A DNA stretch of 64,000 bases from a virus (Duplodnaviria > Heunggongvirae > Uroviricota > Caudoviricetes), in IMG/VR virus record IMGVR_UViG_3300013126_000009; one strand, written 5' to 3'. Shown piece after piece: positions 19,478-59,888 of the stretch (position 1 is the first letter of the stretch; each line of letters starts with the position of its first letter). The position numbers and the translations under genes were made by a program. The notes beneath the pieces were generated by a model that made no database searches, was not told where the DNA came from, and saw nothing but the letters and a program-made list of their open reading frames with translations.

Positions 19478-21280
19478 ATGTCACACTTATTAAACTCTGG
19501 TTCAGTTGGAAATATCGGACTTAACCACATGAAAGAAGTAAGGAAAAAAGTACAAGAAAAGTGGGATTCTACAGGCTTCCTTACTGGTCTTCAAGGACAC
19601 ATTAAAGAAAACGTTGCTCAGTTATTCGAAAACCAAGCTGGTAGCTTGTTGACCGAAAACACTGATGCTACTTCTTCAGGTTCTTTTGAAACAGTAGTAT
19701 TCCCAATCGTAAGAAGAGTATTCTCTAAACTTCTTGCAAATGATATCGTATCAGTACAAGCAATGAACTTGCCAATCGGTAAATTGTTCTTCTTTGTACC
19801 TGTTACATCTTCTAGAGTAGACGCATCTGGTGCTGCTGGTGACCCTTATGGTTCTGTACCATATAACGGTTCTTACTCAGCACATACTGGAATGACTCAA
19901 CTACCTGATTGTGTGGTGAATGGTGCTTCTTGCCCATCTACTAGCTTTTTAGCTAAAAACCTTTATGATTTATTCTACAACGATGGTTTGTTTGATAACT
20001 CAAAGGGTACCTTAACTATTAAGTCATTTACTGGTGCTACTCAAGTTACTAAAGTCGCTTTGGGCGCTAACGGTGAGTTTAGTGTAATCGCTCCAGCGGC
20101 TACTTTAGCAACAGCAACTGATGGTTCTGTACGTGAAGTTATTTTACGTGTATCAGGATTTAGCTCAACAAATAAAGGTCGTTTAACTGGTCCAGATGGT
20201 AATACTATGGATACTGAGTCTTTCTTGGCCTCATTAATGGTATTTAACGCTGGTTCAGCAATACTTGACGCTAATGGTGATGAAATTATCCCGAATTTGG
20301 GTAAAGTACCATTTAGGGTTGTAACTCAAAAATACGGAAAGGGTATTGTTGAATATGATGACATCTGTGACAGTGCTGGTCACATCTATTTAGGTGCTGA
20401 CCTTACTCATCCAGTTGATATCAATGCTGCTACGACAACTTTCGATGGTTACATCGGTATGTCAGCCACAACTGCTAGTGCAACAACATTTGCTGTAGCA
20501 TGGGCTGAGTACGCAAGCCTTGAGTTCGAAACTGAAATGGGTGAAGTTTCTTTCAGACTTGACGATGTTGTTGTGTCTGTAGAAGAAAGAAAATTGAGAG
20601 CTACTTGGTCTCCAGAATTGGCACAAGATGTTAGTGCATTCCACAACATCGATGCTGAAGCTGAATTGACAGCGTTGCTTTCTGAGCAAATTGCATCTGA
20701 AATTGACCGTGAAATCCTTAGAGATTTGAGAAGTCTTGGTGCATGGCAAATGAGATGGGACTATTACGGATGGAGAAAAGCGTCTAGCGCATCTAACGCT
20801 TACACCCAGAAGGATTGGAACCAAACTTTGATTACCAAAGTTAACCAAATCTCAGCTCAAATCCATAAGTCAACACTTAGAGGTGGTGCTAACTTCATCG
20901 TAGTATCTTCAGAGATTTCTGCAATCTTCGATGACCTTGAGTACTTCCACGTAAGTGATGCTTCTCCAGAGCAAGACCAATACAACATGGGTATTGAAAG
21001 AATCGGTTCATTGGGAGGACGTTATCAAGTATACCGTGACCCATATGCACCAGCATACTCAATGATTATCGGTCACAAAGGAAAGTCATTGTTGGATACA
21101 GGTTACATCTACGCACCATACGTGCCAATGCAACTTACCCCAACTATGTACAATCCATTCAACTTCGCTCCAGTGAAGGGAATTATGACACGGTATGCGA
21201 AGAAAAGCGTGAATAACCGCTTCTACGGACATGTTCGTGTAGATGGTGTTCCAACATTCAACGTAGCTGAATTGAGATAA
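19478..21280 (+). CDS. major capsid protein (T4 gp23-like)
   Basis: IVSVQAMNLPIG, RKLRATWSPELAQD, DAEAELTALLSEQIASEIDREI, GYIYAPYVP, GIMTRY. Confidence 0.95.
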   Translation: MSHLLNSGSVGNIGLNHMKEVRKKVQEKWDSTGFLTGLQGHIKENVAQLFENQAGSLLTENTDATSSGSFETVVFPIVRRVFSKLLANDIVSVQAMNLPIGKLFFFVPVTSSRVDASGAAGDPYGSVPYNGSYSAHTGMTQLPDCVVNGASCPSTSFLAKNLYDLFYNDGLFDNSKGTLTIKSFTGATQVTKVALGANGEFSVIAPAATLATATDGSVREVILRVSGFSSTNKGRLTGPDGNTMDTESFLASLMVFNAGSAILDANGDEIIPNLGKVPFRVVTQKYGKGIVEYDDICDSAGHIYLGADLTHPVDINAATTTFDGYIGMSATTASATTFAVAWAEYASLEFETEMGEVSFRLDDVVVSVEERKLRATWSPELAQDVSAFHNIDAEAELTALLSEQIASEIDREILRDLRSLGAWQMRWDYYGWRKASSASNAYTQKDWNQTLITKVNQISAQIHKSTLRGGANFIVVSSEISAIFDDLEYFHVSDASPEQDQYNMGIERIGSLGGRYQVYRDPYAPAYSMIIGHKGKSLLDTGYIYAPYVPMQLTPTMYNPFNFAPVKGIMTRYAKKSVNNRFYGHVRVDGVPTFNVAELR

Positions 21281-21301
21281 TAAAACTCAAAATAATCAAT
21301 G

Positions 21302-21333
21302 AAAAGAGGGTCAAAATTGACCCTCTTTTTTTT
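21302..21333 (+). terminator. intrinsic terminator after major capsid gene
   Basis: AAAAGAGGGTCAA-AA-TTGACCCTCTTTT followed by T-tract. Confidence 0.9.
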
Positions 21334-21422
21334 ATATGTACAGTAATTTGGTTTAAAAATAAATGGGTTAAAACTTGATTCACCTGATATTTATGTATAT
21401 ATTTGCATAAATAAATTAAAAG

Positions 21423-23144
21423 ATGGGTAAGAAAGTCATACTAAGCGATAAAGATATATCTGATATTATCAGACTATATAAAGATGATACAATTGGTGTT
21501 GAATCGTTGGCTAAGAAGTTTAATGTTGGTAAATTAAAGATAAAGTCAGTTTTAACGGAAAATAATATACCAATTAAAAAACGTGGCGCTCAAACAACCG
21601 TTGGTAACAGTTCAGAAATTGAAAAATCACATGTTATTATGTATGAAACAAATAATGTTGATAAAAAATTAGTTGCTATATGTAAAATAACTGATACAGT
21701 TTTTGAAGATGTGAATAATCGTTCAGGGGCATTAACCAATCATATTTTATCAACATATGGTGATGTTCCAATACCAACAAATACATATCAACGAAAAAAA
21801 TATGAAAGAGAGTATGGTAAAAAATGGTTTGAAGAGTATTTTGATATTAAAGAAATAGATAAACCTAAAACGAGAAAATGTAAGTTATGTGATTGGGAAA
21901 CCGTAGATATTGATAATAATTCTGGTAGTTTTGAACAGCATTTGGTCAATAATCATAATATTACATTATTAGAATATCTGGAGGGTTTTCCTGAAGACAT
22001 TAAATACCATTCAAAATATGATAAACTAAAACACAGATTAAACCCCAATAATCATATTATATGTAAGGTATGTGGTAAAAAAATGGGTTATTTAACAGCG
22101 ACACACTTATCTACACACAACTTGACTTTAACTGACTACAAGTTAAAATATCCTAAAAGTGACGTATTATCTAACGAATATAGGGATAATTTAAAAGAGC
22201 GTTATGATGAACATTTAAAACATTACGAACCAACTTACTCAACTAAGCCACAGGAGGAAATTTATGAATATATTAAAAGTTTAGGTTTTAAAGTTAAAAA
22301 GAATGATAAAACACTATTAAACGGTACCGAAATAGATATTTTAATGAAGGATAAGCTCATTGGTATCGAATACAATGGTTTATATTATCATAGAGAAGGT
22401 ATGGGTAAAGATAGAAACTATCATTTAACTAAAACTAAATTAATGGAAAGTTGTGGTTATAGTTTGATACATATATTTGAAGATGAATGGTTAAATAACA
22501 AAGATTTAATTCTTAACAAGATTTCACACTTACTGAATGTTAATAATATGAAGTCAATAGGTGCCAGAAAATGTAATATAAAACAAATAGACGCATATAT
22601 TAAATCAGATTTTTTAAATACCAATCATATTCAAGGTAATGATAACTCAAACATTTATTATGGTGCATATTATGACAATATATTAGTTGCTATTATGTCT
22701 TTTACAAATAAAAGGAGTATGAATGGTAAATCTGATAGTTATGGTGAATATGAATTATCTAGATTTGCAACGAATATTAACTATAGGGTCGTTGGTGTCG
22801 CTGGTAAGTTATTAAAACGATTTATCAAAGATTATCAACCCAATAATATAATAAGTTTTGGTGATAGGCGATGGGTGCTTAACGGTGAAGAAAATATGTA
22901 TACTAAATTAGGTTTTAAATTGACCAAGACTTATTCACCAGATTACAAATATTATAATCCTAAAATAGCCAAAAATAAACGTTTTCATAAATTTGGTTTT
23001 GGTAAATCGTCTTTAAGAAAGAAATATCCAGAGTTGGATTTCACAAAGACTGAGAAAGAGTTGATGACTGAATTGGGTTATGATAGAATTTGGGATTGTG
23101 GTTTATTCAAATATGAACTCATATTAAATGGTAACCAACAATAA
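21423..23144 (+). CDS. Hef-like putative homing endonuclease (HTH, Zn fingers, Vsr/DUF559-like nuclease, GNAT/Mom-like C-terminal domain)
   Basis: CKLC..H..H and CKVC..H..H fingers; EIDI..IGIEYNGLYYH..LIHIFEDEW; NHIQG..YELSRFA..RIWDCG. Confidence 0.7.
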   Translation: MGKKVILSDKDISDIIRLYKDDTIGVESLAKKFNVGKLKIKSVLTENNIPIKKRGAQTTVGNSSEIEKSHVIMYETNNVDKKLVAICKITDTVFEDVNNRSGALTNHILSTYGDVPIPTNTYQRKKYEREYGKKWFEEYFDIKEIDKPKTRKCKLCDWETVDIDNNSGSFEQHLVNNHNITLLEYLEGFPEDIKYHSKYDKLKHRLNPNNHIICKVCGKKMGYLTATHLSTHNLTLTDYKLKYPKSDVLSNEYRDNLKERYDEHLKHYEPTYSTKPQEEIYEYIKSLGFKVKKNDKTLLNGTEIDILMKDKLIGIEYNGLYYHREGMGKDRNYHLTKTKLMESCGYSLIHIFEDEWLNNKDLILNKISHLLNVNNMKSIGARKCNIKQIDAYIKSDFLNTNHIQGNDNSNIYYGAYYDNILVAIMSFTNKRSMNGKSDSYGEYELSRFATNINYRVVGVAGKLLKRFIKDYQPNNIISFGDRRWVLNGEENMYTKLGFKLTKTYSPDYKYYNPKIAKNKRFHKFGFGKSSLRKKYPELDFTKTEKELMTELGYDRIWDCGLFKYELILNGNQQ

Positions 23145-23895: not shown

Positions 23896-23935
23896 AATTA
23901 TGTTTTATTATAAATATCAGGTAAAAGGTTTAAAA

Positions 23936-25043: not shown

Positions 25044-25074
25044 AATATGAATTTTAGTTAATAATTGTGAACCA

Positions 25075-25082
25075 CAAATATA
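25075..25082 (-). promoter_or_regulatory. Bacteroidota-type -7 element TATATTTG
   Basis: matches TAnnTTTG ~30 nt upstream of ATG 25043. Confidence 0.55.
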
Positions 25083-25083
25083 T

Positions 25084-26334: not shown

Positions 26335-26998
26335 CTAGCAATTCAAAAACCCATTCTGGTGGTTCTTCATTTGGATTATTTTTATTCATTGGAGAATCTT
26401 TGACCCACTCAGCCACATCACCAAGAATATTAAAGTCATACTTATCATAGTAACCATTATTTGTTATTATGTCAAGCCATTTATTCCAAGTTGGTTTATA
26501 ACCCATATTGACCAAATCAATAATAAACCCTTTAATAATTGGGTCATTAATATTTTCCAGTTCCGATTTGTCAATGTGTTTTGATTGTGATTTTTTATAA
26601 TCTGAATAATTAAAATTGAATAGTTTATCCAATTCTTGTCTCATTTTTGCGCCTGATTGTGTTAAAGATGTTCGTTCAAGATTTTCATAACCGTATTTCT
26701 TTGCCAAATAAATCATTAATATTTTCCCATAACCTTTACCACCTTCAAGTGCTTCAATCAGTGATATTGTAATTTCGTCATTATAGTCAACATAATCAAC
26801 CTTAGCCAATGGTTTATTGGTTTCTTTATCATACATTATTGCCGTATAATTATCTTGGCCATCGATATGTCCAGTATGTTCATCAGTGAATTTATAGTCA
26901 TTTAGTATTGCAAAAGGTTTACCTTTCTTAACTTTTGACCAATCCTCTTGATATAGTTTATGGAGTTCTTCGTTTAATATTTTTCTTACTCTACTCAT
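26315..26998 (-). CDS. GNAT-like protein with head-cargo-like N-terminus
   Basis: MSRVRKILNEE; ISLIEA..GGKGYGKILM acetyl-CoA-binding-like motif. Confidence 0.5.
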   Translation of the reverse strand: MSRVRKILNEELHKLYQEDWSKVKKGKPFAILNDYKFTDEHTGHIDGQDNYTAIMYDKETNKPLAKVDYVDYNDEITISLIEALEGGKGYGKILMIYLAKKYGYENLERTSLTQSGAKMRQELDKLFNFNYSDYKKSQSKHIDKSELENINDPIIKGFIIDLVNMGYKPTWNKWLDIITNNGYYDKYDFNILGDVAEWVKDSPMNKNNPNEEPPEWVFELLDEIKTL

Positions 26999-28416
26999 TA
27001 CTGACCATATCTTAATTCTGATTGACTTACAATGTCAAAAAATAACACCTCATTTAAAGTAGTAACCTCTAAATTACTTGTTACCTTTATATCGACATAG
27101 TATGTATTAGGTATCATACTGGCAGTATCTAATAAAAAGTAATTATGGTTATTAGCCAATTCAATTGGTTGATAGTCAATTATTGTCAGGTCATTTCTAC
27201 CTTCTTTAACATATACTCTATATTCAGCGCTGTCAATTCTTTGTTCTTGATTAACGGTGTATGGTATTTTAGTTTTAAGTATTACTTTTCTAATATCACC
27301 ACGTTTGATTCTTTCACCTCTTTGTATTCCAGATGCCACGACACCTACTTTCTTTGGTAATGAATCGTTATCACCAATGTTGTACCAACCCATTGAGTCT
27401 TTCAATGCAAAATCTAATGTGACGTTAGGTCTATTGATACCATTTATTGTTATACCAGACCATACATCGGTAAACATGAAATCTTCAGTATAATCATTTG
27501 TCGTTGGTACGTTTATGTCAATTTTATAAACGCCCTTTGTTACATGTGTAACGTCACTTGGTGTATATGCTGAGAATACGTCACCATTATAATCATAAAC
27601 GGTTACCGCTGGTATTGAATCCAAGTTTGTTGGCGTACCACCCAAATTAACATATAGATATAACTCATTGTCTTTATCTAGATAGAAATCGTGTCTATCA
27701 TCATTTATATGGTCAGCATACGTTGTTTCAACAAATGGTTCATAAATACTTTGTGTGTGTCTGGTAAAGAAACCGACATATTGATATTCAACAGTACGTA
27801 AATTTTCATACTCTTGTTGATACGCTAATACTAGACCATTATTTGTATTACCAGTTAATAGACCATTAACATAATCGGTAATATCCATTTCAAGGTTTTC
27901 ATTACCTAATTCAAAATGTTGTGAAGCTATTGTGATGCCACTGGTAGCTCCAGTTACAACACCTGATTCTGTCCACGCTGATAGTGTTGTTGCTTGAAAC
28001 CAGTTGGATGGGCTTGCAGCCAATGCTGATTGACCCAATACGTAAGTACAATTAGCATAATCATAGCCAACACCTTCATCCCAATATTGGTTTATTGGAA
28101 ATAATATTAAATCAAATGAAGATGAACGCTTTTTACCATCACACGTATCCTTGCCCAATAATTCTTTATCTAATGACCCAGTATTGGTCATTTTAAGCGT
28201 ATGTGTCATCTTAGTTATATCTGGATAGGTTCCACCAGTATAAAACGATTTAAGGCGCTCTACGTCAAAATAAAACAGGTATCTGCTATATGTTTGCGTC
28301 AATGTACTACCAGTTCCACCACCATAATATAATTCGGTTACTGGGTTTCTGGATGTATTGGTGTATTCATCCAGTATTATTGTATTGTCTTTGTCAAAGA
28401 AAGTTCTAATTACCAT
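26998..28416 (-). CDS. virion structural protein (beta-sandwich type)
   Basis: SRYLFYFD, WDEGVGYDY, DITDYV..NNGLVL; late motif at 28433..28440. Confidence 0.6.
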   Translation of the reverse strand: MVIRTFFDKDNTIILDEYTNTSRNPVTELYYGGGTGSTLTQTYSRYLFYFDVERLKSFYTGGTYPDITKMTHTLKMTNTGSLDKELLGKDTCDGKKRSSSFDLILFPINQYWDEGVGYDYANCTYVLGQSALAASPSNWFQATTLSAWTESGVVTGATSGITIASQHFELGNENLEMDITDYVNGLLTGNTNNGLVLAYQQEYENLRTVEYQYVGFFTRHTQSIYEPFVETTYADHINDDRHDFYLDKDNELYLYVNLGGTPTNLDSIPAVTVYDYNGDVFSAYTPSDVTHVTKGVYKIDINVPTTNDYTEDFMFTDVWSGITINGINRPNVTLDFALKDSMGWYNIGDNDSLPKKVGVVASGIQRGERIKRGDIRKVILKTKIPYTVNQEQRIDSAEYRVYVKEGRNDLTIIDYQPIELANNHNYFLLDTASMIPNTYYVDIKVTSNLEVTTLNEVLFFDIVSQSELRYGQ

Positions 28417-30164: not shown

Positions 30165-30166
30165 GA

Positions 30167-31600
30167 TTAAAAAGTTATTGGACTATTTTCGCGAATCATT
30201 CTTATCACGTCCTGTGGTACACCGACAAGACTTAATAAGATGGCTAATTGAGCGTTTGCCTTTTCTTTCAACGCCTCAACTTGATTTGCGGCAATTAATT
30301 TTGTTATATATTTAAGTACTAATTGTAATAATATTGTTATTATTTTATCTCTAATAACATTAATTATTCTTTGTATAAGTACTTTATTCTGTTTAAGTAA
30401 ATCTATAGGATTTGTAAATTCCGCACCAAATCCATGAACAATCTTATAGTTCAATAAGAATATTGAAATAACCTTTGGTCCTAATATAGCATTAACATAG
30501 GCTTTAATTAATGATTTGAACATAAGCCCCATAAAATCCAATTGAACAGCATATTCATCAACAGGGTCACCAGCAAAACTGGATACGTGGTTGGCCATAT
30601 CATTAAGATTGGTTCTAATAACTTCATGTTGTTCAAATCTTGTACCAGCTGACACAGAAGTAAATTGTTCTTTTAGTGCTGTTAAGAATTCGATTGGCAT
30701 ATTTACATCAACATCACCACAGGTTTTAATTTGTCTAATACCGTTACGTCTATTTGTTGCAGCTTCTTTTATATCCTGTAATTGTTCATTTGTGAACTCA
30801 AAATAAGTGTCATCGATAACATAATCGTCATCAGCATTGGTAATACATTCAATGACAGCATTAATTTTTTCTTCCATTTCCAATTGTGATTCACTCTTAT
30901 TCACTGATAGATTAAAAGAAACACTACCGAATAAACCATCAATTAATTTGGTTATAAGTTGTGTTGATGGAAACATTGTTAGACTGTCAATAAAGTCATT
31001 ATTTAGGTCAGTCAATGTACGGGTATCGTATGCTGGGTCAGCTTTAATTGTTAACGTATTATATGGCACGTTTGAACCTTGGTTGAATTCAAAGGTTAAA
31101 ATTCCTTGCCATGAATATTGTGTACCTTCGTCTTGAATAACGTAATATAAGAAAGTATTAAAATCAGTTGAGCCAGTTTGTGCTGCGATATCTTCATAAA
31201 TAAGATTACCAGCTTGTGTTGTTGGGTCGGTTTTTAATATTTCAAAGAAATCGATTTTCTTTACTTGTATCTGTATACCAGAGCCAGTACTTTGTAACCA
31301 TGATGGTAATGATGGGTCAACACCACAGGATGTGAGGCTTTTTAATTGGACCTTTAAAACGTCTTTAACAACGTCTTCCATTGTTTCTGACGCATATGAT
31401 AGTATATCAACTAAAGTGTCCCTAAGTTCTTCAAAACCAGTTAATGATAATATAAGGTCTATTAAGAATTGTTGTGGGTCAGCTGAATTGTTGATTGATG
31501 GGAATGAGTTATTTATCTTTAGCTGAGGAAAATCATCAGTTAAAGTACGTAACGCTGAAATGTTACCAAATACCTTTTCTTTGTCCTTTAATATTGGCAT
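30167..31600 (-). CDS. putative structural protein
   Basis: 477 aa, coupled to neighbours in late cluster. Confidence 0.55.
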   Translation of the reverse strand: MPILKDKEKVFGNISALRTLTDDFPQLKINNSFPSINNSADPQQFLIDLILSLTGFEELRDTLVDILSYASETMEDVVKDVLKVQLKSLTSCGVDPSLPSWLQSTGSGIQIQVKKIDFFEILKTDPTTQAGNLIYEDIAAQTGSTDFNTFLYYVIQDEGTQYSWQGILTFEFNQGSNVPYNTLTIKADPAYDTRTLTDLNNDFIDSLTMFPSTQLITKLIDGLFGSVSFNLSVNKSESQLEMEEKINAVIECITNADDDYVIDDTYFEFTNEQLQDIKEAATNRRNGIRQIKTCGDVDVNMPIEFLTALKEQFTSVSAGTRFEQHEVIRTNLNDMANHVSSFAGDPVDEYAVQLDFMGLMFKSLIKAYVNAILGPKVISIFLLNYKIVHGFGAEFTNPIDLLKQNKVLIQRIINVIRDKIITILLQLVLKYITKLIAANQVEALKEKANAQLAILLSLVGVPQDVIRMIRENSPITF

Positions 31601-32769: not shown

Positions 32770-32778
32770 ATTATTGAT

Positions 32779-39948: not shown

Positions 39949-39951
39949 TAT

Positions 39952-46501: not shown

Positions 46502-46502
46502 T

Positions 46503-47330: not shown

Positions 47331-47953
47331 TAGTCCCTAAAATAATTTGAATAATCTACGTTACGATTCTGAATATCACTAAACCCAGCCGTTTGTTTAG
47401 CCATGTTAGGGTAAAAACCATAAACATTAAATCTGTTATGTAATTCAGCGTAATAAGCATCAACTTGCCTTTGTCTTTTTGGTAAAACTCTTTCTATTAT
47501 ATCAAACATACTACTATTAATTGCGACACATTGTAAAGCAACAGTAAAGTTTAGTTTAATAATTTTATCATTTATTAATTTAGGTGGTTGACCATAAACA
47601 TGGTTCCCACCAAAATAAATAAAATCCCAATCAGATGGTACCATTGACATATAGTCATCTAACTTTAATATCTCTTCGGTAAAATAAACATCATCTTCTA
47701 AAATTAAAACATTATTAAAACCGTTTTTTTTACATTTTTGTATTATACATAAATGTGATTCTAAAACACCTAACTCACCAGCTAATAACGATATATCGTT
47801 GGACATGATAGTCGCGCCATCAACAGCGGGAAATCTTTCCACTTCAGTAATACTAAATTTTTCAATTTCTTTTAAAAAAGATTTATATCTATCTGGTCGC
47901 CTATCTAAATTAATAACATAAATCGCATCGAAATATTTTTTTAAATTAACCAT
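47330..47953 (-). CDS. GT25-family glycosyltransferase
   Basis: YVINLDRRPDR, AVDG, GELG..SH, LILEDD. Confidence 0.85.
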   Translation of the reverse strand: MVNLKKYFDAIYVINLDRRPDRYKSFLKEIEKFSITEVERFPAVDGATIMSNDISLLAGELGVLESHLCIIQKCKKNGFNNVLILEDDVYFTEEILKLDDYMSMVPSDWDFIYFGGNHVYGQPPKLINDKIIKLNFTVALQCVAINSSMFDIIERVLPKRQRQVDAYYAELHNRFNVYGFYPNMAKQTAGFSDIQNRNVDYSNYFRD

Positions 47954-47974
47954 TTTTTTAAGTTTTTGTTCGTA

Positions 47975-49633
47975 TTAATATAGAATTAATTCATATCGTT
48001 GTTTAATTTCTTTAGCAACACAATCACTATTGAACTTATCAATATCTTCTGGTATATTATGTAAATTTTTACTTAAAATATTACCCGAAGAATCTACATC
48101 ATAAATCCAACCTTTTTTACCACACATCCAACCTTCAATTGTTGTTCTACCCAATAATATTCCAGCCGTTTCATCACATTGTTTTATATAATTCTCAACG
48201 TTATTTTGTGGGCCAAAATATTTTACATGTGATGTATCACCACCATATTCATTAAATATATCCGAAACTTTAACATCATTTTCTTTTCCAACTAACCAAA
48301 GTTCGTCATTAGATTCGGCTGTTGTTTTAATCAAGTCTATTATTGTATTTTTTCTAAGATAGTCTATTGTACCAACAAATAATATTCTTTTATTTTTCCA
48401 ATTTTTTTGACCGTTAGTTGGTTTGAACCTATTTGAATCTATTGGGTTATAAATTACCTCAATTTTTGATTCATTGATACCAAAACTATTTATTAGGAAG
48501 TCTTTGATTTCTGGCCTGATAGCGATGTATTTTTTTATCTTTTCACTTATTACAGGTTCTTCAAGATTTATAACCTCGGAATGTATAGTACAAATTGCCT
48601 CAATTTCAGGGTATAGTCTTAAAAAATGTTCGGTTATTGGTTTGTGATTTAAGTGCATTATATCAAAATTAACCTCAGACACCTTATATAGTTTACCCTT
48701 TTCGGACTTAACTAAACCTTGTGGTGTATTAACACCCCATTCACCGTCACCAAGTTTATAACCTGGTGGTTCAGATAGATTATATAACTTAATTCCCAAT
48801 TTCTTTGCTTTATCAACCATTGGTTGACCCAATTGGGAACATATTGTGACATTGCAGTTATTTTCGACCAAACCTTTAGCTAATTCATATACATACATTT
48901 CTGAACCAGTTAAATTAGCGAAACTAAGACAACTTATTAAAACATTCATCTTATTATGATTACTGAACGTCTTTTTTATTCTAACTGGTAAGTTATCTTG
49001 ATATTTCTTAGCAAATATTTGTCGATTATTTTCCCATTCATCATTCGTTTGTCCAATTGACATATGATTTATCAATATGTTTGTATGAACACCGATTTTT
49101 ACACCTTCCAAATAATTTCTAAAACAAAAATCAATATCATAAAAGTGAAAACCATTAACTGTCTGGTCAAAACCTTTCTTTATTCGTTTTTTATGTACCG
49201 AAAAGAATACACCGTCTACCGTGACAACATCTTCTATGCGATTACCTAAATCTTCACTATAAGAAGATAACCATTTTTTATCTTCATGTGTGTGGTAAAC
49301 TTTACCATACATACTTCTACGGTCTTCCCACCACCTACCAGTATCGGAAAGATATTTAGTGCCAGCAACCCCTAAAATACCATATTCAGGGTTTCTGTCA
49401 TATAATTTAACCAATTTTTTGGCCGCTTGCTTAGTTTCAATTAATATATCGTCATGTAAAAATACTACAATATCGTATTTCGATTCATCTAATCCCTTTT
49501 GATAGAATTTGGTTAAACTTTCACCTTTATTAACATACTCTAAAATCTCAACTTTAGGATGACCAAACATCTTCATTAGATGTTCAGAATGTTTAGGGTT
49601 CGGTTCTCTTGTACAATATACGATACTAATCAT
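47975..49633 (-). CDS. bifunctional GT2-like + GT4-like glycosyltransferase
   Basis: N-terminal FLHDD..GVAG..VDG..FHFYDID; C-terminal TGSEMYVYEL..IYNPID..GRTTIEG. Confidence 0.8.
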   Translation of the reverse strand: MISIVYCTREPNPKHSEHLMKMFGHPKVEILEYVNKGESLTKFYQKGLDESKYDIVVFLHDDILIETKQAAKKLVKLYDRNPEYGILGVAGTKYLSDTGRWWEDRRSMYGKVYHTHEDKKWLSSYSEDLGNRIEDVVTVDGVFFSVHKKRIKKGFDQTVNGFHFYDIDFCFRNYLEGVKIGVHTNILINHMSIGQTNDEWENNRQIFAKKYQDNLPVRIKKTFSNHNKMNVLISCLSFANLTGSEMYVYELAKGLVENNCNVTICSQLGQPMVDKAKKLGIKLYNLSEPPGYKLGDGEWGVNTPQGLVKSEKGKLYKVSEVNFDIMHLNHKPITEHFLRLYPEIEAICTIHSEVINLEEPVISEKIKKYIAIRPEIKDFLINSFGINESKIEVIYNPIDSNRFKPTNGQKNWKNKRILFVGTIDYLRKNTIIDLIKTTAESNDELWLVGKENDVKVSDIFNEYGGDTSHVKYFGPQNNVENYIKQCDETAGILLGRTTIEGWMCGKKGWIYDVDSSGNILSKNLHNIPEDIDKFNSDCVAKEIKQRYELILY

Positions 49634-51745: not shown

Positions 51746-51777
51746 CAAACTTACAAAATTTTAAGACAAAAGTCAAA
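51746..51777 (-). promoter_or_regulatory. Bacteroidota-type promoter TTTG-20-TAAGTTTG
   Basis: -33/-7 elements at canonical spacing upstream of 51713. Confidence 0.6.
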
Positions 51778-53059
51778 CAACTTCTACTTCTTCAAACTTC
51801 TTACTGTCAGCCAAAACTTTAAGATATAACTCACGTCTCTTAGCTGTAACAGCGTCAATACTGTACGTGTCTTTGACCGTATCATATAATCTATTACCCA
51901 GTACTTCAATCTTATCTGGATTGGTAATCAAATATTTAAGATGTTGATACCATTGTTTGTGATTCTTAGCACTATCCACCAATAAAGCATTACCAGTTTC
52001 ATTGAATTCACCACCTTTATCTTTGGCTGATGTCAAATCAATTGTGTATGGGCCAAAATCTTGAGCAACCAAAGCTTTTTTATGGAAACCAGCTTCAATT
52101 ACCTTTAATTGTGATTTGACCTTGTTAAATTGGTGTGTAACCAAAGGTGCCAAAGAAATATCAAACATATTATAATTGCTGGCATAGGTTGAGATTGGTT
52201 TTGTCCAAACCCTTCTATAAGGCTCATTATCAACATCTGGGTATTCTGTTTTAGTGAATTCATGCAGATAAGCTTTATATTCAGGACTTACTGTTTTAAA
52301 ATCATCAGTGAATATCTTTTCATATTCATACCAGACACTTTCATGTGGTTTAATCGGTCTTTGGGTCTGTTGACCAGTTTTTTGGTCAATCGTTGTAATC
52401 ATACCTCTAATGTCGTAACCACAAAGAACAAATTGAACTTTATCCATCAATTTATCACCCTTTAGTTTAGTTACAAGACCTTTTAAAAGTTTAATATCCT
52501 CAAGATGTGAGCTACCACCAAGAAAGGCGATTCTAATCCTATCACTTTTTTTAACATCTATTTTAAATTGTTTTTCAGATGGGTCAACAGCATTTGGTAT
52601 TACATATACGTTCTTATTTATCTTTGATATGTCATCGGCAAAAATTTCAGTGGTTGTTATTACATTCTTAGCCAATTTAATATTATTAGGTATTTTCTTA
52701 TCCAGTCCAGCTTGTTTAATCATCATATGTGCTGGGTGATGACTACCAGGCGCCCAATAATCATCAATGTCCATAAAACTTACAATACCTAATTTATCTA
52801 ACCTATCTAACGTGGATTGCATTGTTTCAAAACTACCCAAATTTCTATGGTAATGAACGATATCATATTTGCTTAACCATTCTTCATCGTTTAACTTTGG
52901 TTCATAATCAATATCCACATGAAACTCATCTGGATAATTCTTTTCTAAGGTCATATGTGGTTTGGTTGAACGATAATATCCAACGCCAGTGCGGTCACTA
53001 GGTACTACAAGTACTCTAATTTTACGACCTACTGGGGCATTAATTTTCTCTTGTTTCAT
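51773..53059 (-). CDS. GT-B (GT4-like) glycosyltransferase
   Basis: GVGYYR, DIDD, IPNA, GGSSH..D, DISLAPL..FNKVKSQLKVIEAG. Confidence 0.85.
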   Translation of the reverse strand: MKQEKINAPVGRKIRVLVVPSDRTGVGYYRSTKPHMTLEKNYPDEFHVDIDYEPKLNDEEWLSKYDIVHYHRNLGSFETMQSTLDRLDKLGIVSFMDIDDYWAPGSHHPAHMMIKQAGLDKKIPNNIKLAKNVITTTEIFADDISKINKNVYVIPNAVDPSEKQFKIDVKKSDRIRIAFLGGSSHLEDIKLLKGLVTKLKGDKLMDKVQFVLCGYDIRGMITTIDQKTGQQTQRPIKPHESVWYEYEKIFTDDFKTVSPEYKAYLHEFTKTEYPDVDNEPYRRVWTKPISTYASNYNMFDISLAPLVTHQFNKVKSQLKVIEAGFHKKALVAQDFGPYTIDLTSAKDKGGEFNETGNALLVDSAKNHKQWYQHLKYLITNPDKIEVLGNRLYDTVKDTYSIDAVTAKRRELYLKVLADSKKFEEVEVV

Positions 53060-53186: not shown

Positions 53187-53780
53187 TCACTTTAACAAAC
53201 CTTGTTTTTTTAATGTCATTATAGTTTTCTTGATTGTATCTTCCTTAATCTTATTAGTATAGGACTCGCTCATTATTCTGACCAATTCGTCTCTCACAAT
53301 ATTCCTGACCATATCTTCATTAACATTAGATGTCGTTGGTTGTTGACTTATTGGTTTCTTTTTATTTTGCATAAGTTCATTCAGACTGCTAGGTTGGTTG
53401 TATGGTACTTCCTTTTCACCACCCATTAAGTCTTTTCTAACATTTGATAAATTATAATCAATCTTAGGTACAAACATATCAGCTGGTTCGATTATATTTT
53501 CAGACATTATTTTTTTAATACTATCTGGTAACTTTGAATTATTAATCATATCTTTACTGATTGGTCTCGGTTCAGTACTTTTACTGGTCATACCGTAACC
53601 TTCATTCATCATTCCATCAGGAAGTTCTGAAAGATACTGTGTTGGTTGTTCGTCAACAAAACCTTGTGTTGTCGATTGACTTGGTGCTGTTTTTTTAACA
53701 GATTCAGCCATTGCCATAACAGCTTTACTCTTTTCAAGATTCTTAAGAAATGATAATGGTACGTCTACTGGTTGTTGCAT
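53187..53780 (-). CDS. hypothetical late protein
   Basis: 197 aa with several [LIVM]xE motifs. Confidence 0.55.
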   Translation of the reverse strand: MQQPVDVPLSFLKNLEKSKAVMAMAESVKKTAPSQSTTQGFVDEQPTQYLSELPDGMMNEGYGMTSKSTEPRPISKDMINNSKLPDSIKKIMSENIIEPADMFVPKIDYNLSNVRKDLMGGEKEVPYNQPSSLNELMQNKKKPISQQPTTSNVNEDMVRNIVRDELVRIMSESYTNKIKEDTIKKTIMTLKKQGLLK

Positions 53781-53784
53781 AATT

Positions 53785-54453
53785 TTAAAATTTAGCTATG
53801 TTTAAAACACTTTTCATACTTTTATCGCCATTGGGGTTGAATTTAGGTCTTGGTGTTCTAAATCTTCTGTTTAATACAGACCATTGACTGATTCTGTCGA
53901 CCCTGAACAACTTCCATTCTGGAACAATGGTATCACTATCACCACTTAATTGATAAGCCCTAATAACTGGATTACCAGCCATTGATATACCATAAGCATA
54001 TACCTCAACGTTCCTTTTTCCTTTTGAAGTATTTTCATCCCCATCATAATAAATTATGATTTCGTTTTTGTTATTAATCGCGTCATTTATATTTGTGACA
54101 CTTATTGATGTTGGTTGTCCTTCATCACTACCTTTTTCAACACTTACAACATTTTTGAAAGTGAATGGTCTAATATCACCAGTCCTTTTATTGGCTGTGG
54201 TGAATTTTAATGTACCATTTACAATACCTTCATTTTTATCAACAAACCATCTATATCCAGTATACATTGATTTGGGTAAAAGGATTTCAAGTTCTAATTG
54301 CTCACTGTCCATACCAATAACCTCAAACGGTATTTCAGTATTATTGGTAACAATTGTAACTATATCCCTATTACTTAAACCTTGAAACGGGTTTGATGGA
54401 TTAAGTTGTTGTTCAAGTATAACACTTTCAAATATATTGTAAAGTTTTAACAT
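53785..54453 (-). CDS. WYL-domain protein with head-cargo-like N-terminus
   Basis: IIIYYDG..KRNVEVYAYG..VIRAY..WKLFRVDRI; N-terminal IFESVILE. Confidence 0.7.
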   Translation of the reverse strand: MLKLYNIFESVILEQQLNPSNPFQGLSNRDIVTIVTNNTEIPFEVIGMDSEQLELEILLPKSMYTGYRWFVDKNEGIVNGTLKFTTANKRTGDIRPFTFKNVVSVEKGSDEGQPTSISVTNINDAINNKNEIIIYYDGDENTSKGKRNVEVYAYGISMAGNPVIRAYQLSGDSDTIVPEWKLFRVDRISQWSVLNRRFRTPRPKFNPNGDKSMKSVLNIAKF

Positions 54454-54767
54454 TATAGTTGTGGTGCAGTATAAGGATTATTTGGTGACATCCCCCATTG
54501 TGATTGGTTATATGCGATGGCCGCTAATCTACCAGAACCACCATAGTTAGGACTACCTAAAATATCAAGTTCACCACCACCATTATATGTGTCCAAGTAT
54601 ATGCCTGTACCTTTACCTTGGATTGGCGTTTCTTGGTCTTTTAATGCTCTAGTGTGTGTTGCTGAATATTCGTTTGCATCCGCTTCACCATTGTAAATAT
54701 TTTTTACTATGTTATTTTTCCTAGCAACATTAGCAGCGTCAGTTAATTTTTGTGCAGCATTACTCAT
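54453..54767 (-). CDS. hypothetical late protein
   Basis: 104 aa, coupled. Confidence 0.6.
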   Translation of the reverse strand: MSNAAQKLTDAANVARKNNIVKNIYNGEADANEYSATHTRALKDQETPIQGKGTGIYLDTYNGGGELDILGSPNYGGSGRLAAIAYNQSQWGMSPNNPYTAPQL

Positions 54768-54768
54768 T

Positions 54769-55239
54769 TTAGTTTAATTTATTTTTGTTGTTATTATTAT
54801 CCATATATTCTATTAAATATCTCATTTTGGACATTTCCTTATCATAATCCTCTTTAACATAATCAACAGTATTGTTCATTATATTCCTACCATTACTCAT
54901 GGTTCTGACATCTGGAATACCACCAACCTTTGTTGGGTTCTTATTATCCCTATCTTTTTTATGCGTATCTTTAAAGTTATTACCACCACCCTTTTTACCA
55001 CTAGCACCTGTTTCCATTCTGATTCTTTTTGGTGCTTCGTTTGCGGTAATTTCCTTTTTAAGTGTTTCTTCTAACCATTTTAAAACTTTATCTTCTTCAG
55101 GCGTCCTTTTATCTTTATTGTTCAATTCAGACATTTTTTTATTCATATTGGAATATGACATTTCTACATTATTGTTTAATAATGGTCTAAGATTCTTTGG
55201 AACTTCGAATGATTTATTTTTTAAATCAAGATTTGGCAT
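54769..55239 (-). CDS. basic hypothetical protein
   Basis: 156 aa. Confidence 0.6.
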   Translation of the reverse strand: MPNLDLKNKSFEVPKNLRPLLNNNVEMSYSNMNKKMSELNNKDKRTPEEDKVLKWLEETLKKEITANEAPKRIRMETGASGKKGGGNNFKDTHKKDRDNKNPTKVGGIPDVRTMSNGRNIMNNTVDYVKEDYDKEMSKMRYLIEYMDNNNNKNKLN

Positions 55240-55780
55240 CGCTCAATAATTTTTTAAGTTCTTCTTTTTCTTCTGGTGATAATTTCTCAATCTTTGAAAC
55301 CAATTCAGTGAATTTATCTTTATCTACCAATTCTTTATTGGTGATTTTGGACACCAAATCATTTTCGCTACCTTTAGATACCATATCCTCAATCATTGAT
55401 TTGATGTTTTCTTTCATTTGTAGATTTGAGTCTTCGTGAAGCATACTTAACCATGTGCCAACACCCAATCGTTCACCGTGACTATATGCTGTACCACCAA
55501 GTCCAGCAAATGCTCTTTGCCATCTATCACCTTGACTGGTATCTCTTCTTATTTTATCGGTATCAGGTGCAACCCCTTTTTTATAGCTTGTCAATCCACG
55601 GTCTTTTGCTGGTTTTTGTACAGGGCCTGTTTGTATATTAGCTTCATTACCATCTGGAACAGCACTATCAACAAAAGAACCATCGGGGTCTACAAACTCA
55701 TCGATTAATTGTTCATCAACCTCAGTATTTTCGTTCATATTGAATTTCAATAAAAATTCTCGTTTTTTTAAAATAGTCAT
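55226..55780 (-). CDS. hypothetical late protein
   Basis: 184 aa; ATATTTAT at 55798..55805. Confidence 0.6.
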   Translation of the reverse strand: MTILKKREFLLKFNMNENTEVDEQLIDEFVDPDGSFVDSAVPDGNEANIQTGPVQKPAKDRGLTSYKKGVAPDTDKIRRDTSQGDRWQRAFAGLGGTAYSHGERLGVGTWLSMLHEDSNLQMKENIKSMIEDMVSKGSENDLVSKITNKELVDKDKFTELVSKIEKLSPEEKEELKKLLSDAKS

Positions 55781-55797
55781 ATTAAAAAGCTTTTAAT

Positions 55798-55827
55798 ATA
55801 AATATGTCAAAAACATCAATATTTATA
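55798..55827. promoter_or_regulatory. divergent pair of putative late promoters (ATATTTAT)
   Basis: motif on - strand at 55798..55805 and on + strand at 55819..55827, each facing a gene start. Confidence 0.6.
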
Positions 55828-55840
55828 ATAAACTATTATT

Positions 55841-57523
55841 GTGACCAATATAATTAACTATACACCAAATAATCTTAAGTTAGTTCTTTCAAATAGGTAT
55901 TATTGGGATTTCTATTTGAAGAATGCTATGCCTAACTATGCACCATATACTGGTTCAACCTCAGGAACTTGTTTTGTCGTTGATTTTGACTTTAATAACC
56001 CAGCAATATTTGGTACTGGAACAACTTCCGCTGATACTATTTATTCAACACAGACTTGGACTGGCGCAACTAATACTGGTGTAACAGCAACGACTATCGG
56101 TATTACTGGTATTGACAACGGTTTGATTACATTTGAAAAGTTGTCAGCAGACACATCAAATCAAGCGTTATTATCAGCTTTAACAGCTTCAACATTATAT
56201 ATACCATCTGGTGATACAAGGTTTATGATGACCAGAGTTACTGGTATGACAGAACAATACGAATATCCAATGAATTTTGTCACCAGTACTGGAATAACTG
56301 GTGATTATATGAATTTCTGTGGTGGTTTCTATCAAGGGTATTATAAATTAGATGGTTTTGATTATCAGGTATTACCAAATAGGGTGAATAAGGGTTGGGT
56401 TGCTGAATTCTGGTTAAATAAATCCGATAATGCTTGTAGTGGAACAACAGCAACAACTCTTAATGACCTTTACCCAGATAATAAAGGTTTTTTCTTTTAT
56501 ATGGGTACAAGGGCTGAAAATAAGTTTTGGGATGTATTTGAAGGTCTTAACACTGGTTGCACAAGTGCATGTACTACACCAATAGGTTGTACGGGAACAG
56601 TTACAACATTTTGTACAGTACCTAAAGAAAATCAAATTGTATTGTCAAATGGTGTTACATTAGACCCACCAGAAATAAAGGAGATTGTGATTAAAAATCA
56701 ATTTATGATATATCATAATGGTGGGGCAACAACAACTCATTATGGCGTAAGTTACCCTAAAGGAGAAACCGCACCAGAATTTACAGGTGATAGTATTACC
56801 ATAACAGCGACAACACAATTATTAACAGATAATAGAAATCAATTCTTAATCTACTGTAATAAATGTAATAGCGCCAGTTGTTCATGTGGTGAATCAGATT
56901 GTCATACTGTATGTGATTATTCTGGAAGAACACAACCTTTATTGAGTTTGGATTACAATTTGGACATTATTGATAACGCAATAGGTTTTAGGATTAAAGA
57001 TGATGGTAGCATAGGCTATCGTTTATTATCAGTAACAGGTACCTGTACAGGTGATACATATATTTCAGGTGTTACAGTTACTGAAGGATATTCAGCCAGT
57101 GGTATGGTAACAAATGATATTTGGAAGAATATCGCAATAAGATTTTACGCTTATGAAAGAATGACCGATGAAGAACTATTATGTAAAGGTCGTAGATTAG
57201 GTAGATTGGCTATTTATGTTAACGGTAAGTTAAAATTCTGGGTTGATGACTTTTTGGAAATAATACCAAGACGATTGGACACCAATTATCAGAAACAAGT
57301 TGCCGTACCATATAATATAAGTTTAGGTGGTGGTTCACAAGGTTTATTGGAAAGTATGACCTTTGATGGTCAAGACCCTGAAGATTTAGGTCTTAATATA
57401 GAAAAGAACTTTGCTGGAACATTCATAGGTTCAATATCACAATTCAAATTTTATACATGTAATCTTAATTGGGTTGATATTGAAAATAATTATAACCAAG
57501 AAAAGGCAAGATACGGTTTATGA
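55841..57523 (+). CDS. virion structural protein with LamG/ConA-like domain
   Basis: EFWL, WKNIAI, IYVNGKL, FIGSISQFKFY; GTG start. Confidence 0.65.
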   Translation: MTNIINYTPNNLKLVLSNRYYWDFYLKNAMPNYAPYTGSTSGTCFVVDFDFNNPAIFGTGTTSADTIYSTQTWTGATNTGVTATTIGITGIDNGLITFEKLSADTSNQALLSALTASTLYIPSGDTRFMMTRVTGMTEQYEYPMNFVTSTGITGDYMNFCGGFYQGYYKLDGFDYQVLPNRVNKGWVAEFWLNKSDNACSGTTATTLNDLYPDNKGFFFYMGTRAENKFWDVFEGLNTGCTSACTTPIGCTGTVTTFCTVPKENQIVLSNGVTLDPPEIKEIVIKNQFMIYHNGGATTTHYGVSYPKGETAPEFTGDSITITATTQLLTDNRNQFLIYCNKCNSASCSCGESDCHTVCDYSGRTQPLLSLDYNLDIIDNAIGFRIKDDGSIGYRLLSVTGTCTGDTYISGVTVTEGYSASGMVTNDIWKNIAIRFYAYERMTDEELLCKGRRLGRLAIYVNGKLKFWVDDFLEIIPRRLDTNYQKQVAVPYNISLGGGSQGLLESMTFDGQDPEDLGLNIEKNFAGTFIGSISQFKFYTCNLNWVDIENNYNQEKARYGL

Positions 57524-57551
57524 CCATATTTATTAAAAAAGAAAATTTTAA

Positions 57552-59888
57552 ATGGCCACTAATAGATTAGTTTTACGTAGTACAGGTAGCCCATATACTT
57601 TCCCTTTACCAGATATTGTTAAAGGTTCTGTTTTGTCGTGGAGTGAGGTTGATAACAACTTTATATTTTTAAAGGGATTAGATATTAAAAGCGGTTCAGT
57701 AAGTGGTACTGACCTTATATTAGAAAGAATCAATGGTAGTAATATAAGTATCGATTTATCGGCATTTACTGGTGGTACTGGTACTGATGTTTTTGTAACT
57801 GGTGGCACTTATAGTGCATCAGCGTCAACTTTAACATTTACAAACAATACTGGTGGTACATTCAGTATAACTGGTGTAACTGGTGGTAGTGGTGGTACAG
57901 ATTATTACACAACAGGTTTTACATTTAACCCAGCAAATTATGACATTACCGTCAGTTTGAATAATGGTACTGATTTAACACAGAATTTGGGTATATTAGC
58001 TGGTGACCTTAAAGTCACTGGTGGTACTTATAATCCATCTACTGGTGTTGCAACCTTTACTAATAATAGTGGCGGTACATTCCAAGTTACTGGATTCTTA
58101 ACTGGTTATACGGATATATATACAACTGGTTTTACTTATGATAACACAACAAATACATTATCAATTAGTGATACTTATGGTTCCGTATATAATGCGTTAA
58201 TTGACCAAATGTCTGGTTTGACAATAAATGGTAATTTAACCGTTACTGGAACCTCTAATTTAAATAATGTAACTGCCAGTACAATAACTAATCTAAATTA
58301 TATCGATTTTAATACTGGATATACCCCAACTCAGCAGATTGGTAGGATTCATTGGGACCAAGATTATGGTACGTTAGACGTTGACTTAGAGGGTAATAAT
58401 GTAAATCTTAAAGTTGGTTTAGACAATTTATATTATATTAAGAATCAAAGTGGTTCAACAATAAATAAAGGTAGAGTTGTTAGAGCTGCTGGAACCTTAG
58501 GTTCTTCAGGTAGAATACTTGGCGAGTATATGATTGCTGATGGTACAATACCTCATTATTTTACTCTTGGTATCGCTGGTGAAAATATTTTAAATGGTGA
58601 AGATGGTTATGTTTATGAGTTTGGCTTAATTAAGGGTTTAAACACCACAGGTTCATTATATGGTGAAACGTGGAGTGGTGGTACAATACTTTATGTTCAC
58701 CCGACTATAGCTGGTGGTTTAACCAGCATTGAACCTGTTGAACCAAATTTGAAAATACAAATGGCTATTGTTATTGATGCTGATAGTAATGGTTCTTTGT
58801 TTGTTAGACCAAGTTTAGGTTATAATATCGGTGATTTACATAATGTACAAACTTCTGGACAGACCAATGGTGATTTACTAATATATAATAGTGGAACTAC
58901 GATATTTGAATTTGGTAAAACATTAACTGGCAATTATTTAATAAGCGGTGGTCTATCAGCGACAACGGGAACATTTGGTCAATTGGGTATTTATAACCAA
59001 TTTATTTTTCCAACAACTGATGGTTCGCCAAATCAAGTATTGCAGACTGATGGTGCTGGTAATGTTTCTTGGGCAACAGTATCTGGTGGTACTGGTAGTA
59101 CATCACCAGCTGGTTTAGATACTCAGATACAATTCAATCAAGGTGGTTCATTTGGTGCAAACTCTGGATTGACCTATGATTATGGAACAAATGTGTTTAA
59201 AACTGAAGCCGTTATTGGTAATTCAACTAATCTATTTGAGAATGGAATTTCATTTATAGGTCCAAGCAGCGGTGTAACTTCAATTTTATATAATAATGCA
59301 TTAAGTGCCACAAGTTATTCTTTTTTTCTTAACGGTGATTTATCATCAATTGCTGATGATTATTCAACAATATTGGGTTATACTGATTTTGGTACCAATG
59401 ACCGAACACTTGTCAATCTAAGAAAGGATGTCGCCCAAATGCAATGGGTTGATGATGTTAACAGTCGTGAATCAGAAATAAGTTTAAACAATTCTGGTGT
59501 TAGTATTTACAATAATACTGGCACAACTTCTACAGGTATATATATAACTAATCAATACGGTGTAAATGTTAATTTATTTAATACAGGTCAAAGTCAAACT
59601 TTTCTTGTTACTAGAGAAACAGCCCCATCAGTCTATACTCATTATTTTAGCGTAGACACAAACGGTTATGTAACAATAAACGAAGCTTATACGTTCCCTA
59701 ACACTGATGGTTCACCAAGTCAAGTGTTGCAGACTGATGGTTCTGGTAATGTGTCATGGAGTTATATTTTTACTTCAGGCTCGACAACAGCTAATGCTGG
59801 TGTTCAAACATTACCATCGAACCCTCTTGGGTTCATAATAACTAATTTAAATGGTACACCCGTTAAAATTCCTTATTACGATATTTAA
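57552..59888 (+). CDS. tail fibre/appendage protein
   Basis: N-terminal LSWSEVDNNF; T/G-rich repeats; duplicated FPxTDGSPxQVLQTDGxGNVSW; C-terminal KIPYY. Confidence 0.75.
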   Translation: MATNRLVLRSTGSPYTFPLPDIVKGSVLSWSEVDNNFIFLKGLDIKSGSVSGTDLILERINGSNISIDLSAFTGGTGTDVFVTGGTYSASASTLTFTNNTGGTFSITGVTGGSGGTDYYTTGFTFNPANYDITVSLNNGTDLTQNLGILAGDLKVTGGTYNPSTGVATFTNNSGGTFQVTGFLTGYTDIYTTGFTYDNTTNTLSISDTYGSVYNALIDQMSGLTINGNLTVTGTSNLNNVTASTITNLNYIDFNTGYTPTQQIGRIHWDQDYGTLDVDLEGNNVNLKVGLDNLYYIKNQSGSTINKGRVVRAAGTLGSSGRILGEYMIADGTIPHYFTLGIAGENILNGEDGYVYEFGLIKGLNTTGSLYGETWSGGTILYVHPTIAGGLTSIEPVEPNLKIQMAIVIDADSNGSLFVRPSLGYNIGDLHNVQTSGQTNGDLLIYNSGTTIFEFGKTLTGNYLISGGLSATTGTFGQLGIYNQFIFPTTDGSPNQVLQTDGAGNVSWATVSGGTGSTSPAGLDTQIQFNQGGSFGANSGLTYDYGTNVFKTEAVIGNSTNLFENGISFIGPSSGVTSILYNNALSATSYSFFLNGDLSSIADDYSTILGYTDFGTNDRTLVNLRKDVAQMQWVDDVNSRESEISLNNSGVSIYNNTGTTSTGIYITNQYGVNVNLFNTGQSQTFLVTRETAPSVYTHYFSVDTNGYVTINEAYTFPNTDGSPSQVLQTDGSGNVSWSYIFTSGSTTANAGVQTLPSNPLGFIITNLNGTPVKIPYYDI

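Follow-up and report, generated by a model that had tools for sequence, protein, structure and literature searches.

A candidate [S/T]-[G/A]-x-T acceptor motif for phage-encoded glycosylation of virion proteins in a clade of T4-like phages

Glycosylation of phage virions is known from only a few cultured systems. In mycobacteriophages, phage-encoded glycosyltransferases (GTs) are reported to O-glycosylate the virions, and the glycans are placed at the C-terminal ends of capsid and tail-tube subunits (Freeman et al. 2023, as cited in PMC12619734). The 'moraphages' are metagenomic aquatic jumbo phages with predicted Flavobacteriia hosts, which carry four core GT orthogroups without an assigned target (PMC12619734). 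Among bacterial enzymes, SgtA of Clostridioides difficile is a soluble GT-A that places O-linked N-acetylglucosamine (O-GlcNAc) on Thr of the Gly-Pro-Thr repeats in the spore-surface protein BclA3 (PMC7157674). The present analysis concerns 64,000 nt of one strand of the IMG/VR record IMGVR_UViG_3300013126_000009 (Caudoviricetes), hereafter the window, with its focus on positions 19,478-59,888, for which a sequence-only reading had proposed that the phage glycosylates its own virion at a private [S/T]-[G/A]-x-T sequon. An ordered motif that tracks two conserved GT genes, GT428 and GT552, was found, which supports that proposal in part, but the role it gave to the adjoining island of sugar genes is not supported.

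The window derives from an uncultured, distant T4-like myovirus. Its closest cultured relative is Flavobacterium phage vB_FspM_immuto (immuto), with a capsid identity of about 39%, and closer relatives in IMG/VR number hundreds. These include G010, a complete GT-positive genome of 345 kb with terminal repeats and a capsid protein 73% identical to that of the window, so that the source is most likely an aquatic jumbo phage of about 350 kb. The hosts of this clade of T4-like jumbo phages of about 350 kb are probably Flavobacteriia, as has been predicted (PMC12619734).

The motif in outer-particle proteins

The 67 non-overlapping open reading frames (ORFs) of the window were translated, and [ST][GA].T was counted in each protein against 1000 composition-preserving shuffles. 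Six proteins carry the motif signal:

55841-57523 (+), predicted virion protein of 560 aa with concanavalin-A/LamG-like jelly-roll domains (AlphaFold2, AF2, fold), 20 motifs
57552-59888 (+), fibre-like protein of 778 aa with weak similarity to an immuto protein annotated as tail-fibre-like, 26 motifs
26998-28416 (-), conserved protein of 472 aa in the head/neck gene block, 8 motifs
19478-21280 (+), major capsid protein of the T4 gp23 family with a variable insertion (PF07068, E=2.7e-69), 5 motifs
1550-1810 (+), small protein of 86 aa with a homologue in G010, 3 motifs
274-714 (+), small protein of 146 aa, paralogue of 1550-1810 with a similar N-terminal stretch, 2 motifs

The excess was strong in the 560-aa protein (1.8 motifs expected, z=14), the 778-aa fibre (4.4 expected, z=11) and the 472-aa protein (0.95 expected, z=7), and was also present in the major capsid protein (1.1 expected, z=3.8) and the 86-aa protein (0.4 expected, p=0.002); the 146-aa protein was not significant alone (0.5 expected, p=0.09). 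In outer-particle proteins the motif occurs at about 6 to 11 times chance. The polymerase had 1 motif against 0.9 expected (z=0.1) and the terminase 0 against 0.4, and all 61 window proteins outside the six, these two included, had 0 or 1 each, except for a 477-aa protein (30167-31600) with 2. These numbers reproduce exactly the hand counts of the sequence-only reading (20, 26, 8, 5, 2 and 3, with 1 in the polymerase and 0 in the terminase), and the motif is confined to virion-type proteins, among them the capsid protein (in its insertion), the lectin-fold protein and the fibre.

[ST][GA]xT is a genuine, ordered amino-acid-level motif. Its excess over composition-shuffled controls persisted under local shuffling in blocks of 8-30 residues, the permuted patterns [ST][GA].S, [^ST][GA].T and [ST][^GA].T were at or below chance in the motif-rich proteins, and the reversed motif was far less enriched than [ST][GA].T. 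An unguided scan of every gapped pattern of two or three residues, in which the six motif proteins were compared with the remaining 61, returned TG.T, SG.T and SA.T as its top three (log10 p of -13, -11 and -9.6), and no pattern of comparable strength was found in the remaining 61 proteins. Composition and local low complexity were considered as causes and ruled out by the global and local shuffles and the permuted motifs. An origin at the level of DNA was likewise ruled out, because the full set of synonymous codons occurs at each position of the motif, which places the signal in the protein.

The O-glycosylation sequon of the Bacteroidota host, D-[ST]-[AILVMT], was not enriched in the four main proteins (2 observed against 2.4 expected, 0 against 3.8, 5 against 2.6 and 2 against 2.3), in agreement with the earlier statement that this sequon differs from the motif. 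The 778-aa fibre (57552-59888, +) is without any instance of it (0 against 3.8, z=-2.1).

The motif sites are internal and, outside the capsid protein, are spread along the chain. The major capsid protein matches PF07068 at 234.8 bits (cut-off 24.4). Within its approximately 600 residues, residues 100-340 form a variable insertion, preceded by a conserved N-terminal arm and followed by a conserved C-terminal core, and 254 of the 260 motif instances in the capsid family (74 relatives) fall within this insertion, with none in the conserved core. The AF2 model of the 560-aa protein, with a mean predicted local distance difference test (pLDDT) score of 66, resembles, at fold level only, CBM40 and, in clostridial toxins, the lectin-like half of the receptor-binding domain. 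In the confident parts of this model, the motifs lie in loops, at the first residues of strands, in one hairpin turn, within strands and at one helix end, and no one structural context appears from the model to account for them. PHROGs, Pfam and the protein atlas gave no family name for the 472-aa, 560-aa, fibre or small proteins.

A motif profile was pooled from 2738 unique instances in 171 enriched ORFs of related loci. Position 1 takes Ser or Thr and position 2 takes Gly or Ala, and position 4 after [ST][GA] is occupied by Thr 47% of the time, against 8% for Ser. At position -1, V, L, F, W and C are preferred (1.8-2.5x), and E, R, K and D are avoided (0.4x or less). The earlier claim that x varies freely holds broadly, with Cys favoured, but Pro and Lys are depleted about 10-fold at this position (0.1x) across the 2738 instances.

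Conserved glycosyltransferases and the GT-less subclade

The sugar genes of the window are all on the minus strand:

51773-53059 (-), GT428, a conserved soluble GT-B (GT4-like) glycosyltransferase of 428 aa (phrog_7162, E=7e-40)
47975-49633 (-), GT552, a conserved soluble fusion of GT-A and GT-B (GT4) domains, 552 aa (PF13712, E=1.8e-30; PF13439, E=2.1e-12)
38024-47953 (-), a hypervariable sugar island (Pfam, NCBIfam)
32779-34693 (-), two conserved weak GT-like genes, one GT2-like of 263 aa and one GT1-like of 377 aa (weak Pfam matches)

The AF2 model of GT428 (pLDDT 81) has a PimA/PglA/MshA/BshA-like fold, and the protein has at least 585 relatives in IMG/VR, with about 60% identity among the matches listed. 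For GT552, no TPR match was detected and no homologue was found in the phage collection, and a sequence search of solved structures gave no useful match for either protein. In four related loci (L039, L020, L007 and L026) the ORF that holds the GT428 homologue is 716-1153 aa long instead of about 425 aa.

Among these relatives, 80 GT428-centred loci were sampled, and a motif excess of at least 3-fold was present in 59 of the 65 that were informative. In the pooled counts, 2441 motifs were observed against 534 expected, with 877 instances of the reversed motif. The excess recurred in the homologues of the main motif proteins, with medians of 13 motifs against 1.3 expected in the 560-aa family (55 homologues), 18 against 3.5 in the fibres, 4 against 0.7 in the 472-aa proteins and 3 against 1.1 in the capsid proteins; the homologues of the polymerase, portal, terminase, scaffold and GT428 had the motif at chance. 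In one column of the 560-aa family, covered by 45/45 sequences, TGTT, TGMT, TGCT, TGAT, TGST and SGNT alternate, and where the motif is lost at conserved sites several of its positions often change together. In locus L009, a Thr/Gly-rich ORF of 688 aa (19664-21728, +) has 0 motifs against 2.6 expected, and follows five consecutive strongly enriched ORFs, one of them of 1996 aa with 79 against 17; some exposed-looking proteins, such as this one, seem to avoid the motif.

A natural experiment is provided by relatives that lack both enzymes. The 92.7-kb contig G001, with a capsid protein 57% identical to that of the window, keeps the window gene order through the region, with GT428, GT552 and the island missing between neighbouring conserved genes, and tblastn found no real trace of GT428 or GT552 on it. 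Together with G014 (351 kb, approximately 100% complete), it keeps the order [53785 homologue]...dUTPase-[36632 homologue]-...-sigma without GT428, GT552 and the island. The G001 contig as a whole has 19 motifs against 21.9 expected, its five-gene fibre cluster has 7 against 7.4, and its homologues of the 560-aa, 472-aa and capsid proteins have 0 each. Profile and protein searches, in which G010 and G006 served as positive controls and gave matches, did not find GT428 in G011-G015, which are relatives of G001; GT552 was not found in G012 and G014, the two checked with the same working controls. The fibre loci of G012-G015 have the motif at chance. Genome-wide, G014 has 82 motifs against 67.8 expected and no protein at p<0.001, and the GT-positive G010 has 186 against 107 and four proteins at p<0.001. 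Enrichment in relatives without GTs, which the sequence-only reading had named as speaking against it, is thus the opposite of what was found, since relatives without GT428 and GT552 show no enrichment in the homologous proteins; the co-occurrence with GTs that it expected was seen for GT428/GT552, across one loss event.

Where the motif columns are best conserved, Gly is often retained in the GT-less homologue but the hydroxyl residues are replaced (TGVT>KGVT, TGMT>NGNN, TGCT>DGYT and SGVT>KGLG), and the conserved N-terminal domain of the fibre follows the same pattern. As these homologues lack the motif hydroxyls, the fold does not need the motif. In the capsid tree the two GT-less members group, at full support, within a clade that includes the GT-positive G005 and G016, and this clade sits within the GT-positive radiation, which points to GT loss. 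On the simplest reading of these sequences, the GT pair was lost and the motif then decayed. GT552 is present in 5/5 GT-positive contigs examined and absent from G001, G012 and G014, and, among the 67 window genes, GT428 and GT552 are the clearest fit to presence in the 5/5 GT-positive contigs and absence from G001.

Immuto, which is without GT428 and GT552, has its own unrelated GT cluster and fibres that are equally Thr/Gly-rich, in which the motif count observed is close to that expected. It was dropped as a 'GT-less' control because of this cluster, and serves only as a control without GT428 and GT552. Among cultured or annotated phages, distant GT428 homologues were found only in Klebsiella phage KP13-16 (27% identity) and in a 735-kb megaphage (36%), and the regions around them, which are uninformative, had no motif enrichment; a profile-based locus search with GT428 returned close relatives only.

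The sugar island contains Fcl-like, Gmd, RfbH/ColD-like DegT, short SDR, FUT8-like, GT2, GT10, FkbM and GT25 genes, and further ORFs. Its GC content (26-28% across 40000-48000, against 31-35% elsewhere) is consistent with recent acquisition or rapid turnover. No homologues of the island genes were found in 136 related loci or 7 related contigs, with the exception of GT25 (4 loci), and at the same position G010 has WecB, FkbM, HAD-nucleotidyltransferase, WavE-like, GT-D-like and GT2 genes. The island differs strongly from one relative to the next, and the motif does not follow it. The earlier pairing of the motif with a GDP-sugar/fucosyltransferase island is therefore not supported, since the relatives examined have no homologues of it, and it is the GT428/GT552 pair that goes with the motif.

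The sequence-only reading had also counted about 10 GTs. Many are indeed present, but this was a slight overcount, as 7 GT genes with 8 domains are backed by Pfam or PHROGs matches, in two cases just under the Pfam cut-off, besides Gmd, an Fcl-like enzyme, a DegT-family enzyme and FkbM. GT428, GT552 and at least five further GT genes of the window encode proteins without membrane segments, and no membrane-spanning segments were found in any of the 32 proteins encoded at 32-56 kb. The region has no Pfam match to a flippase, a polymerase (Wzy), an ABC exporter or a priming transferase. The lack of membrane segments, flippase, polymerase and priming transferase points to a glycosylation target in the cytoplasm.

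A sigma-70 region-2-like gene and the two weak GT-like genes (32032-34693, -) form a trio that is conserved in GT-less, motif-less phages too, the homologues of the 263-aa and 377-aa GT-like proteins being kept in G001 and G014, which have neither GT428 nor the motif. From its gene content and distribution, the trio appears to be a second, separate conserved putative sugar module that is not linked to the motif.

Proposed mechanism and alternative explanations

Taken together, the motif statistics and the gene co-occurrence suggest, with slightly better than even confidence, that hydrophobic-[S/T]-[G/A]-x-T (where x is not Pro or Lys) is a candidate acceptor or recognition site of a phage-encoded, cytoplasmic protein O-glycosylation. 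In the mechanism proposed, GT428 or GT552 would put the first sugar on Thr-4 or on Ser/Thr-1 of virion proteins, folded or folding, in the cytoplasm, and the other enzyme of the pair would extend it. The hypervariable island would contribute capping transferases as well as the sugar donors, which in this phage would be GDP-fucose and a GDP-3,6-dideoxy or amino sugar, and different phages would wear different glycans on the same sequon. Such glycans might serve in masking, stability or adsorption, a matter of conjecture, as is the shield or adsorption role suggested in the sequence-only reading. The fuller picture, in which a clade-wide private sequon on capsid, fibre and lectin-like proteins is read by the two conserved GTs and each phage owes its own glycan 'serotype' to the island, is put at a little under an even chance.

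Several observations weigh against acceptance of the motif as a glycosylation site. Some 20 conserved columns account for most instances in the 560-aa family, a distribution also expected of a structural feature, and the enrichment is weaker in some GT-positive genomes, for example in G010 compared with the window. The contrast between GT-positive and GT-less phages is essentially one evolutionary loss plus one outgroup, and the joint loss of motif and GTs could reflect descent and not function. The fold of GT428 is that of a generic GT-B and gives no pointer to a protein acceptor. G006 has both GTs, but its homologue of the 560-aa protein (2 motifs against 0.5 expected) and three large fibre proteins are not enriched, a 676-aa protein being its only motif-enriched one; either the choice of targets varies or the link between the GTs and the motif is looser. 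One of the fibre proteins of G006, of 1191 aa (53506-57081, -), contains two long collagen-like Gly-X-Y tracts (G-T-S and G-x-N), and these repeats account for an excess of G-T-x-G, TSG and NGT in that genome.

The conserved columns, and a GT contrast that amounts to one event, would also be given by an unmodified, lineage-specific structural habit, in which the motif forms a Ser/Thr-capped glycine turn into a beta-strand and the GTs were lost with it by shared descent. This explanation is unlikely, although several AF2 sites do occur where a loop passes into a strand or in a hairpin turn (403-406), so placed that the strand begins with Thr-4, and the hydrophobic position -1 and the exclusion of Pro at x would suit such a turn. 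The contexts in the model are nevertheless mixed, and include loops, strand starts, mid-strand positions and a helix end, and the motif occurs in folds as unrelated as the capsid insertion, the lectin jelly roll, the fibre and the small proteins. Position 4 accepts neither Ser (8% against 47% for Thr) nor the beta-branched Val and Ile. The GT-less homologues (30-40% identity) and the homologue in G006 fold without the motif, and the equally Thr/Gly-rich fibres of immuto have no excess of it.

A further explanation, rated somewhat less probable than the structural one, is that the motif is a recognition tag for another enzyme, an assembly chaperone or a decoration protein, and that the substrate of the GTs is DNA, a small molecule or a component of the host. 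Hypermodification of DNA by phage GTs has ample precedent (10.1101/2023.12.21.572611, PMC13326640). GT428 and GT552 adjoin dUTPase and HD hydrolase genes, and a ThyA-family gene of G010 may be a hydroxymethylase; like the generic fold of GT428, this gene neighbourhood counts in favour of the tag and against protein glycosylation. The ThyA-family gene (G010 159037-160041, that is, L163:19037-20000 plus L164:1-41; E=3.9e-95) is located just upstream of the homologue of 1550-1810. Both GT-less genomes retain the dUTPase, however, and G001 also retains the HD gene, so that these genes do not travel with the GTs, and no Tet/JBP match was found in G010, in a search without a positive control. No other window gene matches the presence and absence of the motif as cleanly as the GT pair. 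GDP-fucose-type donors and GT10/GT23-like fucosyltransferases are not known from DNA modification.

Glycosylation of the virion by the host's own Bacteroidota O-glycosylation, or remodelling of host surface polysaccharide by the phage genes, with the motif irrelevant in either case, is very improbable: Flavobacteriia do have a general O-glycosylation system, but it acts in the periplasm, and the place of virion assembly is the cytoplasm. The motif-rich proteins have no excess of D-[ST]-[AILVMT], and in the region neither membrane segments nor matches to a flippase, Wzy, ABC exporter or priming transferase were found.

Structural genes and comparison with described systems

The T4-like character of the source phage is accompanied by the following further structural and replication genes:

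in the window, large terminase (profile/family match)
in the window, family-B DNA polymerase (family match)
in the window, prohead protease (family match)
12183-15341 (+), T4-type portal with an intein (Pfam)

The portal gene (12183-15341, +) is twice the usual length and contains an intein splicing domain (residues ~256-598) and a LAGLIDADG endonuclease, both recognised by Pfam. The portals of relatives are about 680 aa or 1035-1493 aa long, a variation which indicates that the intein is gained and lost. The ORF of 573 aa that immediately follows the capsid gene (21423-23144, +) has ROS/MucR-like and GNAT-like stretches besides an endonuclease domain of the MTES_1575/DUF559 type. Its DNA is in part about 70% identical to homing-endonuclease genes of the Bacillus jumbo phages AR9 and PBS1, a likeness which makes it probably a mobile endonuclease.

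Neither a description of the [S/T]-[G/A]-x-T motif nor a defined sequon for phage virion glycosylation was found in the searchable literature. If glycosylation at this site is real, no sequon for virion glycosylation would have been defined in a bacterial virus before it, and sequence alone would suffice to predict which virion proteins are glycosylated in hundreds of aquatic jumbo phages that are uncultured. It would also mean that the hypervariable sugar islands of large phages set the chemistry of the virion surface and do not serve the remodelling of host lipopolysaccharide, and it would provide a compact, soluble two-enzyme O-glycosylation with a 4-residue tag, usable for glyco-engineering.

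The proposed system resembles the O-glycosylation of Bacteroidota, the presumed phylum of the host, in that a short sequon occurs on many unrelated proteins. The sequon is different, however, and the host system is periplasmic and lipid-linked and depends on a flippase, a machinery that was not found here. Giant viruses (chloroviruses and mimiviruses) likewise use their own soluble GTs and nucleotide-sugar pathways, including Gmd-type enzymes, for cytoplasmic decoration of the capsid at non-canonical sequons (PMC9614988, PMC5408694), but their hosts are eukaryotic, chloroviruses attach their glycans to Asn in N-linkage, and, as far as tested, the enzymes are not related.

The SgtA-BclA3 system is similar in placing the first sugar (beta-O-GlcNAc) on Thr in Gly-x-Thr of a surface protein, with further enzymes that extend and cap it (PMC7157674). 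SgtA differs in that it has a TPR domain, accepts Ser and targets a collagen-like GPT repeat (PMC7157674). In the window system, in contrast, Ser or Thr is required ahead of Gly-x-Thr, Pro is excluded at x and there are no tandem repeats, and the GT-A part of GT552 is fused to a GT-B with no TPR detected.

With the mycobacteriophage type, as reported, the proposal made here from sequence would share soluble phage GTs that act in the cytoplasm before release on the phage's own capsid and tail proteins. It differs from what is reported there in that the sites are internal and follow a 4-residue motif over many unrelated virion proteins. A second difference is that the two GTs here belong to the core genes of a clade of T4-like jumbo phages and lie beside a hypervariable sugar island. 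By the features compared, the window system belongs to none of the mycobacteriophage, SgtA and giant-virus systems.

The moraphages, which are jumbo phages from aquatic habitats too, share the T4-type structural genes, a dUTPase and predicted hosts among the Bacteroidota, and differ in that the paper describing them reports no motif or acceptor (PMC12619734). A sequon read by GT428 and GT552 would, if confirmed, explain the purpose of the 'core' glycosyltransferases of these phages, which that paper leaves open (PMC12619734), and the moraphages and the clade of the window may be the same or overlapping.

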